From: Candidatus Odinarchaeota archaeon
GTDB lineage: Archaea; Asgardarchaeota; Odinarchaeia; Odinarchaeales; Odinarchaeaceae
Reading direction: 5' to 3'
Length of the DNA: 32,000 nucleotides
Assembly (NCBI GenBank): GCA_038826135.1
Contig: JAWBON010000005.1
Location: 1,842 to 33,841 of the forward strand
In this document: positions 1,783 through 22,536 of the stretch, one piece after another
Position numbering within the stretch: the first letter of the stretch is position 1
How the letters are laid out: the number at the start of each line of letters is the position of its first letter
Made by a program: the position numbers and the translations under genes
The notes under the pieces: model-generated
Database searches by the model: none
The model's input: only the letters and a program-made list of their open reading frames with translations
Told to the model about the DNA's origin: nothing

Positions 1783-3111
1783 TTAAGATTCAGATATTAA
1801 AGCTGTTTTTATCTTCCACTTTTTTAAATTATTTTTAAAAGTTCTTCCAGTAATAAGACTTTCAGCCATTGAAAAAACCGATCTTCTAAAAGAACGTTTA
1901 CCTATTATTGATTTCAAGAATCTAAAAATTACAGGAATCATAGAGTTAAGCTGCTCTGTCATTTCCAAACTTATATCATAAAGTTCTTGAATAGTGAGGT
2001 TTTTCGGCTTAAAAGTAAATAGGGGAAAAGGGTCTTCTAACCAAAACTGGTTATTAAATAATCTGTTTTCAGAAACAAGTTTATCATATATTTTAGTTCC
2101 AGGATAAGGGGTAAGGTGAGTTATATTCGGTATATCAATATCAGACTCTATAATAAAATCTTTAAGCCTATTTAAACTATCTTTTGTATCGAAATCAGTG
2201 CCTATTATAAAGGAGCCCATCACACCAACACCGTAATCATGAATTTTCTTTACAATATTTTTATAGTTTGAAACCCCTTTAGACAAATTGAGCTTTTTAT
2301 TAAAAGATGATAAAATATTCGGGTCTATGGATTCAAACCCGATAAATAAGAACATACACCCACTTTCAGCTAATAATTTTAAAATTCTTTCATCATCAGC
2401 AATATTAATCGAAGCTTGACCCATCCAGTGTAAACTATACTCTTTTAACAATCCAAATAATTCCACAGCTCTTCCTACAGCTTTTCCACCTACACCGATA
2501 ATATTATCATCAACAATAAACACATTTTTTTTCTTAAGAGATTCAACCTCCTTTTTCAGATAATTTAAAGGCTTATATCTATATGTTCGCCCGTGAAACC
2601 TTGTCACAGAGCAGAAATAACAGTCTAGTGGACATCCTCTTACAGTCTCGAAACTCTCAAATTTATATTCATTTTTTATCAAATCTCTTCGAGGAATTTT
2701 AAATTTAGAGAAATCGAATAAACCTGATTTATACACTTTACGAAGCTTCCCCTCTTCCAAATCCTGTAGCAAATTCTGCCAAACTAGCTCACCGTCACCG
2801 ACTACCACAGAGTCAGCGTACCGCATCGACTCCTCTGGAAGTATTGAAGGATGATTACCACCTAAAACAACAGGGATACCTCTTTCTCTAAATTGATTAG
2901 CAATCAAGTACGCTCTTCTAATTGAATAAGTATTAGCTGTTATAGCAGCCAAATCCGCATCGTAATCAAGGCGTTGAAAATTATTATCGATAATTTTCAC
3001 CTCATAATCATCAGGTATGAAAGCCGCTAAACTAGCTAAACTAAGCGGTGGAAACAATTTCATTGCATATTCCGGAGTTGAAGGGTTAACTAAGACTATC
3101 TTTTTTACCAT
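1783..3111 (-). CDS. B12-binding domain radical SAM protein
   Basis: N-terminal cobalamin-binding-like region (PPLSLASLAA, VVLGGNHPSI, DSVVVGDGE), the CxxxCxxC motif GCPLDCYFC, VDDN, FIGFES and TPYPGT. The start is moved from 3153 to the ATG at 3111 (MVKKIVLVNP). Confidence 0.9.
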   Translation of the reverse strand: MVKKIVLVNPSTPEYAMKLFPPLSLASLAAFIPDDYEVKIIDNNFQRLDYDADLAAITANTYSIRRAYLIANQFRERGIPVVLGGNHPSILPEESMRYADSVVVGDGELVWQNLLQDLEEGKLRKVYKSGLFDFSKFKIPRRDLIKNEYKFESFETVRGCPLDCYFCSVTRFHGRTYRYKPLNYLKKEVESLKKKNVFIVDDNIIGVGGKAVGRAVELFGLLKEYSLHWMGQASINIADDERILKLLAESGCMFLFIGFESIDPNILSSFNKKLNLSKGVSNYKNIVKKIHDYGVGVMGSFIIGTDFDTKDSLNRLKDFIIESDIDIPNITHLTPYPGTKIYDKLVSENRLFNNQFWLEDPFPLFTFKPKNLTIQELYDISLEMTEQLNSMIPVIFRFLKSIIGKRSFRRSVFSMAESLITGRTFKNNLKKWKIKTALISES

Positions 3112-3295
3112 TAAACCACATTTATAAATTAATCCAATCAAAAATAAAAGCAAACTTCTAAATTAAGCATTTTAAACTATCTTTCCTCTGAAAATTTAAA
3201 CCTATTAAAAATAAGTACACATGCTAAAATTTTTAAACTATACAGTATGAGAGCGCGAGATATCAGTTAATATAAAGTTAGCTAAGCAAATTTAG

Positions 3296-3557: not shown

Positions 3558-3663
3558 TGGTGCGGGGGATGGGATTTGAACCCATGAAGCTGTCTGCGTC
3601 TATTAGACTCTACAGCATAGGATTCTGAGTCCTACCCCTTAGACCTGGCTCGGGAACCCCCGC
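3558..3663 (-). tRNA. tRNA-Leu(CAG) with encoded CCA and a probable 18-nt intron in the variable arm
   Basis: Acceptor stem GCGGGGG/CCCCCGC, discriminator A and CCA. Anticodon arm TAGGA-CTCAGAA-TCCTA (CAG at 3627-3625). T arm ATGGG-TTCAAAT-CCCAT. The variable region is 32 nt unspliced and 14 nt spliced. Confidence 0.95.
3592..3609 (-). other. Non-canonical tRNA intron in the variable arm of tRNA-Leu
   Basis: Central helix CUGU/GCAG, bulges AG^A and AC^A, inner hairpin GUCU-AAU-AGAC. Removal leaves U-GCU-GUAG-AGC-UUC, a normal leucine variable arm, and an 88-nt mature tRNA. Confidence 0.8.
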
Positions 3664-3699
3664 TTTTGTAATAATTCTCAGATACGAGTATTTTAATTT

Positions 3700-9957: not shown

Positions 9958-10233
9958 GTGGCATATATGGAGGACGTGGTTAAAACCGCTCAAGAATGCT
10001 ATGATAAAGCATGCCTACTGTACGCTGCCAGAAAACTTGACGACGCTGAGAAAATGTTAAAAGACGCTTTAAAATACTATGAAACAGCTAGAAAAGGAAA
10101 AAACCAGTATAAAAAAGAGATCTCCGAAATCCTGAAATTATTAGGAGACATATACCATCTTAAAGGGGAAGAGGAGAAATCAAGAAACTATTATGAGAGA
10201 AGCCACAAAGTATGGGACTGGAATTTTCCGTAA
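9958..10233 (+). CDS. Small TPR-repeat protein
   Basis: Two TPR-like helical pairs (AEKMLKDALKYY; LLGDIYHLKGEEEKSRNYYERS). Confidence 0.7.
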   Translation: MAYMEDVVKTAQECYDKACLLYAARKLDDAEKMLKDALKYYETARKGKNQYKKEISEILKLLGDIYHLKGEEEKSRNYYERSHKVWDWNFP

Positions 10234-10363
10234 TCTACTATTTACTATTTTAAAAAATCACGAAGAGAGTTTACCTAACTATAAAGATTTTAATCAACGA
10301 AAATTAGGTGAATTAAATAATAAAAAAAAGGATTCAAGAATCCGAGAGCGAGTACGGTATTTT

Positions 10364-10768
10364 TTAGTATTCTATTTTTCGTGGAAGTTTCTTAGCTTGT
10401 TCAATCCAGCTTTTAATTTCTTTAAGAGTTGGCGGTCTCCTCACTATTTTTCTAGCCTTGTTAAGCTCTAGTATCTTATTATGAAGATTCTCAGGATCCC
10501 TTTTAGACAATTCTCCAACCGCGTCAACCCCTGCCTCTTCAAGCAGATCGGAGTATTCAGGCCCGACACCTTTAATCCGGAAAAGATCCGCGTGATTAAC
10601 CCATTCAAGAATTAAATTGTCAGCAATACCTGTCTTATTAGCAAGCTCTTTTCTACCATTTCTTGTAGCCCCTACTTTAAGCAAGGTTTCAACTGTTTTA
10701 ACACCAGCGTCACTGAGCTTTTTAGCATAGCTTGGCCCGATGCCTTCGATTTCAATTATTTTAGTCAT
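10364..10768 (-). CDS. DUF4332 family helix-hairpin-helix protein
   Basis: IIEIEGIGPSYAKKL, WVNHADLFRIKGVGPEYSDLLEEAGV and RRPPT...WIEQAK. The start is probably ATG 10768, after GGAGTGG. Confidence 0.9.
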   Translation of the reverse strand: MTKIIEIEGIGPSYAKKLSDAGVKTVETLLKVGATRNGRKELANKTGIADNLILEWVNHADLFRIKGVGPEYSDLLEEAGVDAVGELSKRDPENLHNKILELNKARKIVRRPPTLKEIKSWIEQAKKLPRKIEY

Positions 10769-10887: not shown

Positions 10888-10980
10888 GCACTTTTTCCAC
10901 CATTAAATAAAAGAAATAGTAACCGTTGAAATCAACAGAAAAAAAGAAAAATGCTTTCATGAATGGTGCCGAGGGCGGGA

Positions 10981-11011
10981 TTTTCCTCCCGACGGTGAGC
11001 ACCTTTCAGGT
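10981..11011 (-). other. tRNA-Met intron 4 at 59/60 (31 nt)
   Basis: Central helix UUCA/GGAA (3 of 4 pairs), inner stem CCUGA/UCGGG; the T stem serves as the outer helix. Removal restores the T loop UUCAAAU. Confidence 0.8.
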
Positions 11012-11025
11012 TTTGAACCCGCGAC

Positions 11026-11049
11026 TTCCGTCAGCTTGAATTTTACTGT
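11026..11049 (-). other. tRNA-Met intron 3 at 45/46 (24 nt)
   Basis: Central helix CCGG/ACGG (3 of 4 pairs), inner stem CAGU/GCUG. Removal leaves the variable loop AAGUC. Confidence 0.75.
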
Positions 11050-11057
11050 TTCCGGAT

Positions 11058-11092
11058 CTCTTATTCGTCTGACCCCTTTTTAACAGACAGAT
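11058..11092 (-). other. tRNA-Met intron 2 at canonical 37/38 (35 nt)
   Basis: Central helix CUCA/UAAG with one C.A mismatch, inner stem GUCUG/CAGAC; the anticodon stem serves as the outer helix. Confidence 0.85.
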
Positions 11093-11099
11093 TATGAGT

Positions 11100-11113
11100 C
11101 TCGCCTCTTTGAA
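11100..11113 (-). other. tRNA-Met intron 1 at 30/31 (14 nt)
   Basis: Perfect central helix CGCC/GGCG, bulges GG^U and AG^A, inner stem UC-AAA-GA. Confidence 0.85.
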
Positions 11114-11295
11114 CCGGCGCTCTAACCAGGCTGAGCCACCTCGGCGTTCAGTGTTTGAATTTTACTTTATTATGTTAATTAACTTTACGCTAAATAATTT
11201 TTTGCAGCGTGGGGGGAAATAGGTTTAACCGGTAATAGTTTGAAACAGAGGTTTTATTAAGGTTTTATAGCTCATATTTATTATTGGTGGTGTAA

Positions 11296-22268: not shown

Positions 22269-22395
22269 GGCTCGGTGGCTCAGCCCGGCTAGAGCAACGG
22301 ACTTGTAAGTTACTTGAAAACCGGGAGATCCGTCGGAAATAGTTGTCACCAGACCTATTGGCGAATCGGGGGTTCAAATCCCCCCCGAGCCTCCA
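22269..22395 (+). tRNA. tRNA-Thr(TGT) with two introns: 37/38 (22308-22327, 20 nt) and 46/47 (22337-22365, 29 nt); CCA encoded
   Basis: Acceptor stem GGCTCGG/CCGAGCC, U73, anticodon arm ACGGA-CTTGTAA-TCCGT after splicing. Central helices CUUG/CGGG and CGUC/GGCG, inner stems GUU/AAC and AAUAG/CUAUU. The mature product is 78 nt. Confidence 0.92.
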
Positions 22396-22405
22396 TAATA
22401 AAAAT

Positions 22406-22536
22406 GGGGCGGTAGTCTAGCTTGGTATGATTCTGGATTTGGGATCCAGAGTTCTATAGGAGAGCCCTATAAACTGGAGATCACCGGTTCAAAAGATTAG
22501 CTGCCAGCTAATCTGAAATTCCGGTCCGCCCCACCA
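22406..22536 (+). tRNA. tRNA-Pro(TGG) with two non-canonical introns: 45/46 (22452-22479, 28 nt) and 59/60 (22494-22519, 26 nt); CCA encoded
   Basis: Acceptor stem GGGGCGG/CCGCCCC and an intact anticodon arm CTGGA-TTTGGGA-TCCAG. Perfect central helices CCAG/CUGG and UUCA/UGAA, inner stems UAUAGG/CCUAUA and GAUUAGCU/AGCUAAUC. The mature product is 77 nt. It lies 10 nt downstream of tRNA-Thr. Confidence 0.93.

Follow-up and report, generated by a model that had tools for sequence, protein, structure and literature searches.

A predicted elongator tRNA-Met gene interrupted by four introns in Odinarchaeum

Introduction

A maximum of three introns per archaeal tRNA gene is stated in the tRNAscan-SE 2.0 paper (PMC8450103), and likewise in a 2015 review. 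The original prediction for the locus described here had given the same figure, which does stand in PMC8450103 but has been superseded by two later reports. Valentin-Alvarado et al. 2024 (PMC11291895, Supplementary Data 4) listed four-intron tRNA genes in Freyarchaeia and Atabeyarchaeia, including Arg(TCT) and Ile2(CAT) of Freya with four introns each by tRNAscan-SE and by curation, and an October 2026 preprint (10.64898/2026.10.13.758758) described as many as five intervening sequences within a single Asgard tRNA gene. The count of four is given in a supplementary table only and that of five in the preprint only. The tRNA introns of Odinarchaeia are absent from the text of both papers: the preprint does not name the class, and the 2024 paper refers to it for replication and taxonomy only. 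A gene with four introns is thus within what has been described, contrary to the original prediction.

The four- and five-intron genes of Freyarchaeia, Atabeyarchaeia, and Jordiarchaeia come from the same phylum as the Odinarchaeum gene and share with it short introns of the bulge-helix-bulge (BHB) type at non-canonical positions, in equal or higher number; however, they encode different tRNAs and belong to other classes. In the Thermoproteales (Pyrobaculum, Thermofilum, and Caldivirga), as far as Sugahara et al. 2008 is summarized in PMC8450103 and PMC4390854, protein-spliced BHB introns occur at 37/38, 45/46, and 59/60, as here, and the multi-intron tRNAs require the broad-specificity (alpha-beta)2 EndA, as would be needed here. 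Unlike Odinarchaeum, they belong to another phylum, and the maximum given for them in PMC8450103 is three introns per gene. The nuclear tRNA genes of Cyanidioschyzon merolae (PMC3728597) also carry several BHB-type introns per gene, and stepwise intron removal from these red-alga multi-intron tRNAs was shown by RT-PCR in the same study, which makes them a model for ordered splicing here. They differ in that the organism is a eukaryote, the number of introns reaches three, and some of the genes are also permuted (PMC3728597).

Results

Structure of the gene and its predicted product

The tRNA-Met(CAU) gene of this Odinarchaeum, a hot-spring Asgard archaeon of the Odinarchaeia, is 182 nt in length and was located by a spliced-cloverleaf parse at positions 11145 to 10964 (minus strand) of the window, which here means the whole 32,000-nt stretch of DNA that was analyzed. 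Removal of 14, 35, 24, and 31 nt at gene offsets 32, 53, 96, and 134, corresponding to sites 30/31, 37/38, 45/46, and 59/60 in tRNA numbering, left five exons of 32, 7, 8, 14, and 17 nt that together form a 78-mer. ARAGORN identified the spliced 78-mer as tRNA-Met(CAT) with a perfect cloverleaf, comprising 7/4/5/5-bp stems, U8, the GG of the D-loop, U33, a TTCAAAT T loop, A73, and CCA. Because the cloverleaf is possible only without all four inserts, none of the four can be retained.

The features of the locus, all on the minus strand, are as follows from 5' to 3'. An AT-rich stretch between positions 11189 and 11146, of which the ~44 nt are near-identical in four Odinarchaeum species, is a putative promoter. 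Exon 1 (11114-11145, 32 nt; tRNA positions 1-30) covers the 5' strand of the acceptor stem, the D arm, and bases 1-4 of the anticodon stem, and is identical in five genomes. Intron 1 (11100-11113, 14 nt, site 30/31) has a canonical hBHBh' motif and is followed by exon 2 (11093-11099, 7 nt, ACTCATA; positions 31-37), which includes the anticodon CAT and is the same in all orthologues. Intron 2 (11058-11092, 35 nt) lies at the canonical 37/38 site, and its placement at 38/39 gives the same product. Exon 3 (11050-11057, 8 nt, ATCCGGAA; positions 38-45) was delimited by the cloverleaf parse and by comparison of orthologues. Intron 3 (11026-11049, 24 nt, site 45/46) lies in the variable region and has an HBh' motif of relaxed form; exon 4 (11012-11025, 14 nt; positions 46-59), delimited in the same two ways, contains the end of the variable region, the 5' strand of the T stem, and most of the T loop. 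Intron 4 (10981-11011, 31 nt, site 59/60) is inserted in the T loop and uses the T stem as its outer helix. Exon 5 (10964-10980, 17 nt), assigned by the parse, comprises position 60, the 3' strands of the T and acceptor stems, A73, and an encoded CCA, a feature found in 27 of the 29 Rfam-detected tRNA genes of this genome. A T-rich tract 3' of the gene (10935-10963), judged from its letters, is a putative terminator whose sequence differs between species.

The original prediction had anticipated that standard finders would overlook this gene, which holds for both ARAGORN and Rfam/Infernal. No tRNA was reported by ARAGORN in the unspliced 32,000-nt window, and the Rfam tRNA model gave no match at the locus, either at the gathering threshold or at E<=10, while matching two other tRNAs of the window. 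A depth-first cloverleaf search of our own was also applied, in which GC-rich acceptor pairs followed by CCA were collected and candidate introns (10-150 nt each, at most six per parse) were evaluated in all combinations; the candidates had to pass a loose BHB filter and an encoded CCA was required. In the window, this search returned the same four-intron parse with a score of 22.6, and unrelated spurious parses scored 15 or less. The predicted conversion of a 182-nt gene into a 78-nt elongator tRNA-Met, with introns of these lengths at these positions, was thus reproduced by ARAGORN on the spliced 78-mer and by our search, which gave the same parse.

Four real tRNA genes were recovered by this search in the window, namely Thr(TGT), Pro(TGG), Leu(CAG), and the tRNA-Met. 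The tRNA-Pro(TGG) gene (window 22406-22536, plus strand) contains introns of 28 nt at 45/46 and 26 nt at 59/60, as the earlier reading of the window had it, and is seen by neither Rfam nor ARAGORN. It starts 10 nt beyond the tRNA-Thr(TGT) gene (22269-22395), which has two introns. In the tRNA-Leu(CAG) gene (window 3558-3663, minus strand), 14 nt are inserted where the long variable arm begins, and Rfam aligns the full 30 nt there as one insertion.

Two other arrangements were considered for the tRNA-Met locus and rejected. A split or permuted gene of the Nanoarchaeum or Caldivirga type does not fit, as the five exons follow one another in tRNA order on a single strand over 182 nt. A C/D-box guide RNA within an intron was looked for by eye; box C is absent and the introns are too short.

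Splice motifs

The motifs were evaluated with the published BHB geometry, in which the four exon bases 5' of the 5' bulge are set against the four intron bases 5' of the 3' bulge. Central helices with three or four pairs, as predicted earlier, were obtained at every junction, with 4/4 pairs for intron 1 and 3/4 for each of introns 2-4. Intron 1 forms a canonical hBHBh' motif with the central helix CGCC/GGCG (4/4 pairs), a 3-bp outer helix GAG/CUC, and a 2-bp inner helix UC/GA. Across nine orthologues, the CGCC/GGCG helix has 4/4 pairs in eight and 3/4 in the remaining one (L009), the outer helix is always 3 bp long, the inner helix has 1-2 bp, and the loop is AAA, UAA, UAG, or AGAU depending on the species.

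The central helix of intron 2 is CUCA/UAAG with 3/4 pairs; in other lineages it is UGAG with 4/4. Its inner stem is 8-10 bp long in three species of the same genus and shows a compensatory change from G:C to A:U between species; in the genome studied here it is interrupted by a C.A mismatch at the second position, with seven of the eight positions paired. Intron 3 has the central helix CCGG/ACGG (3/4 pairs) and an inner stem CAG/CUG of 3-4 bp, lacks an outer helix, and has a loop that differs in both length and sequence between species. The central helix of intron 4 is UUCA/GGAA (3/4 pairs), with the 5-bp T stem as outer helix. Its inner stem CCUG/CGGG reaches 5 bp in three sister species, where the intron is 30 nt; in the present genome, one additional A puts this stem out of register.

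Introns 2-4 are therefore relaxed forms, with 3/4 central pairs, 3-nt bulges, and flanking helices, and they are significant against shuffles only jointly. At least three pairs in all four central helices were reached in 5 of 20000 intron shuffles when the registers were fixed and in ~1% of shuffles when equivalent registers were permitted. A composite score including the inner helices was matched in 0-2 of 20000 shuffles. The relaxed motif class is frequent by chance when boundaries are free (preprint 10.64898/2026.10.13.758758). Relaxed motifs of this kind are weak evidence when taken alone, and the argument for the four introns rests on the comparison of species.

Whole-precursor MFE folds at 37 and 75 C reproduced the acceptor and T stems as well as the hairpins within the introns; for introns 1, 2, and 4, the short central helix was absent. 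Helices of 3-4 bp between bulges seldom appear in MFE structures, and these folds were therefore taken as uninformative.

Isotype and search for a second elongator gene

The pair G1:C72 together with A73 and the anticodon CAU is of the elongator type. The initiator tRNA-Met, whose first pair is A1:U72 and whose anticodon stem is GGGG/CCCC, is encoded by a separate gene on another contig (G000:C25:7153-7378, G000 being the genome studied here).

The anticodon by itself does not separate tRNA-Met from tRNA-Ile2, in which CAU is modified to agmatidine and reads AUA, so the possibility that the gene encodes the latter had to be weighed. Searches for TiaS (PF08489) gave no match in five Odinarchaeales genomes, namely the present one and four relatives that include a single-contig genome, whereas all four archaeal control genomes were positive. 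A tRNA-Ile(UAU) gene, whose product would be able to read AUA, is present in this genome. In addition, the Atabeyarchaeia orthologues are typed Met and not Ile2 by tRNAscan-SE in the table of PMC11291895, and an assignment to Ile2 would leave the genome without any elongator tRNA-Met. An Ile2 identity is highly improbable on these grounds. As TiaS was not found and tRNA-Ile(UAU) is present, the gene was assigned to Met.

A second elongator CAT gene was not found in this genome among the 29 Rfam matches, nor by our genome-wide search, anchor scans, or blastn-short. The genome-wide search covered all contig strands except two, applied a CCA and motif filter, and misparses some genes that have a long variable arm or lack CCA. 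Anticodon-arm matches by blastn-short on contigs C9 and C42 were discarded, the surroundings not being tRNA. Likewise, no second elongator CAT gene appeared in 30/32 Rfam tRNA matches of a single-contig genome of the same genus. In answer to a check proposed with the prediction, the gene is apparently the sole elongator tRNA-Met(CAU) gene of the genome, as far as can be judged from an assembly of 105 contigs that is 93% complete.

Conservation in related genomes

A DNA search over 40 related genomes was performed for the tRNA-Met gene. Full-length orthologues were found in three other species of the genus with 88-91% identity, and the more distant matches were partial. In the alignment of the four Odinarchaeum species, none of the 78 exon columns was variable, compared with 30 of the 106 intron columns (Fisher p = 1.3e-8), and indels were restricted to the intron loops. 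The ~44 nt upstream of the gene are conserved, and conservation ends directly after CCA. In the sister family (genome G005), inserts are present at the same four places; the intron sequences are mostly unlike those of Odinarchaeum, and the mature tRNA differs at 1 of 78 positions. The fourth insert of G005 is placed at 60/61, and no canonical motif could be drawn for it.

These data bear on the possibility that the locus is a decaying, non-functional tRNA-Met pseudogene with junk inserts and that the elongator tRNA-Met comes from another gene. Such a reading would agree with the blindness of the standard finders to the gene and with the motifs of introns 2 and 4, which are somewhat weaker in this genome than in the sister species. 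However, the exons are free of substitutions over four species and changed at a single position in the sister family, in contrast to the diverging introns; the stretch 5' of the gene is likewise conserved, and no other elongator CAT gene was found by the searches of this genome or among the Rfam matches of the single-contig congener. A pseudogene is scarcely credible in view of this, and even less probable than an Ile2 gene; a functional elongator tRNA-Met gene remains the preferred reading.

The exact placement of the introns was considered separately. The mature sequence by itself leaves two sites open to intron 2 (37/38 and 38/39), those from 41/42 through 45/46 to intron 3, and those from 56/57 through 59/60 to intron 4. 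A real gene whose inserts differ in number or placement from those given above, for example because one insert is removed by another route or because boundaries are shifted within repeated bases, would accommodate this ambiguity of 1-4 nt at three of the four junctions, as well as the relaxed form of three motifs and the fourth insert of the sister family at 60/61 without a canonical motif. Nevertheless, every shift inside the repeats leads to an identical mature tRNA, and the cloverleaf needs all four inserts gone. Furthermore, the four species share one mature sequence only with the registers of the original prediction, as is seen, for example, where intron 3 of one species ends in G. A different number or placement is very unlikely, if slightly less so than the two readings discussed above. 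The motifs and the species comparison favour the registers at 30/31, 37/38, 45/46, and 59/60, at which the four introns are placed here.

In other Asgard genomes, the orthologous gene carries two or three introns, at 30/31, 37/38, and 59/60, and the 45/46 intron occurs in Odinarchaeales only, among the orthologues compared. The Asgard orthologues of tRNA-Met thus form a series of two, three, and four introns. The matches in G017, G027, and G040 correspond in their coordinates to the tRNA-Met rows for Atabeyarchaeia-1, Atabeyarchaeia-2, and Freyarchaeia (PMC11291895, Supplementary Data 4). For both Atabeyarchaeia, the match starts equal the published coordinates of tRNA-Met(CAT) (810394-810565 in Atabeya-1), and our parses agree with the published tRNAscan-SE coordinates of genes typed Met; for Atabeya-1, the tRNAscan-SE introns in the published table are the same as those derived here. 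Like the Odinarchaeum gene, these orthologues have introns at 30/31 and 37/38, and that of Atabeya-1 additionally at 59/60. Intron 1 has the central helix CGCC/GGCG in Atabeya-1, as in Odinarchaeum, and GACG with 3/4 pairs in Atabeya-2, and an ATC...GGGGTCAG motif in intron 2 is common to the tRNA-Met genes of Atabeyarchaeia and Odinarchaeum. Unlike the Odinarchaeum gene, however, the Atabeyarchaeia genes have only two or three introns and lack the one at 45/46. On this comparison of orthologous genes, the introns at 30/31, 37/38, and 59/60 are common to other Asgard classes, and the 45/46 intron is a gain of the Odinarchaeales lineage.

Within the loop of intron 2 (window 11058-11092, minus strand; orthologues L005, L007, and L009), a GGGGTCAG(A/G)T motif is kept in Odinarchaeales and Atabeyarchaeia, and the remainder of the intron is unlike. 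The Met introns were also set against those that occupy equivalent sites in other tRNA genes of the genome; no similarity was found past the motif-constrained ends, and there is therefore no sign of intron copying.

Splicing enzymes and predicted order of splicing

Two EndA paralogues are encoded in each Odinarchaeales genome examined. The alpha-like paralogue aligns end to end with chain 3p1z_B (E = 1e-43), with Tyr, His, and Lys kept as judged by eye; we take this PDB chain to be the catalytic subunit of Aeropyrum pernix EndA. The second paralogue is beta-like, lacks the catalytic His, and resembles structural subunits. RtcB is also encoded in the genome. Kaneta et al. 2018, who included Odinarchaeota LCB_4 among the four Asgard genomes analyzed, reported that Asgard archaea have an (alpha-beta)2 EndA carrying specificity loop L1, and the predicted Odinarchaeales EndA pair matches this enzyme in its subunit composition.

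In the present assembly, the catalytic EndA gene is split over two contig ends (G000:C72:2-247, plus strand, and G000:C48:1-135, minus strand) and is intact in the congeners G001 and G002. The RtcB gene (G000:C16:2586-5357, plus strand) is a single open frame of 995 aa in which the Pfam model aligns over positions 1-50 and then over 49-426 about 1.4 kb further on; the interruption looks like an intein-sized insert.

Taken together, the locus is very probably a functional Odinarchaeum elongator tRNA-Met(CAU) gene, the ~182-nt precursor of which would lose four introns by the action of EndA and have its exons joined by RtcB. After transcription of a precursor of ~182 nt, a two-subunit alpha/beta EndA of the broad-specificity crenarchaeal/Asgard kind would remove the four short introns by cutting within both bulges of the BHB motif at every junction, and RtcB would ligate the five exons. 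We infer both that splicing takes place and its order. The outer helix of intron 1 occupies bases 32-34, which the central helix of intron 2 requires, and the outer helix of intron 2 is the anticodon stem, which forms only after intron 1 has been removed; both full motifs therefore cannot coexist. Since the full motifs of introns 1 and 2 are mutually exclusive, processing is probably stepwise.

Other interrupted tRNA genes of the genome

A rough inventory gave ~40 tRNA genes with some 60-65 introns in total, or ~1.6 per gene. The initiator tRNA-Met gene (G000:C25:7153-7378, plus strand; L060/L064) is 226 nt long and contains four inserts, with approximate boundaries: ~41 nt in the D loop, 17 nt at 37/38, ~26 nt in the variable region, and ~71 nt in the 3' acceptor strand, the last with a CCCCGC repeat at its flanks. 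The sister-family gene (G004 and G005) is 265 nt long and has a fifth insert of 31 nt in the T loop. The exon blocks of the initiator gene are conserved in six genomes.

The tRNA-Ile(UAU) gene (G000:C68:~3101-3250, minus strand; L061) has about three introns, located in the D loop, at 37/38, and in the variable region, and an unusual TCCGAAT T loop. Its presence, given that no TiaS match was obtained, suggests that AUA is decoded by a UAU anticodon in Odinarchaeum. In the tRNA-Trp(CCA) gene (G000:C7:~10219-10390, minus strand), an insert of ~65-95 nt after the anticodon loop contains ATGAAGA and CTGA boxes by eye, and in this respect it recalls the tRNA-Trp introns of other archaea that contain a C/D-box guide RNA. 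Three introns were found in Gln(CTG) (G000:C28:1819-1981, plus strand), and three or four in a Leu gene of 182 nt (G000:C75:2840-3021, plus strand). Leu(TAA) has three or four introns in the rough inventory, and a Leu(TAA) gene at G000:C3:~3560-3680 (minus strand) is without an encoded CCA. No tRNA genes for Asn, His, Gly(GCC/CCC), and Arg(CCG) turned up in this 93%-complete assembly.

Discussion

Four introns per gene are already recorded in other Asgard archaea, and the Odinarchaeum tRNA-Met adds another such gene. It is possible, although we put this forward only tentatively and would rate it somewhat below an even chance, that Odinarchaeia constitute a further intron-rich Asgard lineage with ~1.6 introns per gene, in which the initiator and the elongator tRNA-Met would each need four splicings, and the initiator five in the sister family. 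Every AUG codon would in that case depend on EndA and RtcB. On the same tentative view, the tRNA-Met introns at 30/31, 37/38, and 59/60, with the conserved GGGGUCAG motif of intron 2, would be old features passed down across Asgard classes and not the result of repeated gain.

If the gene functions as proposed, an essential tRNA of Odinarchaeum is left unannotated by routine annotation. The gene extends the phenotype of heavily interrupted tRNA genes known from Atabey-, Freyr-, and Jordiarchaeia to a thermophilic class with small genomes. Moreover, the orthologues with two, three, and four introns are useful material to date the gain of introns and to test whether splicing is ordered.
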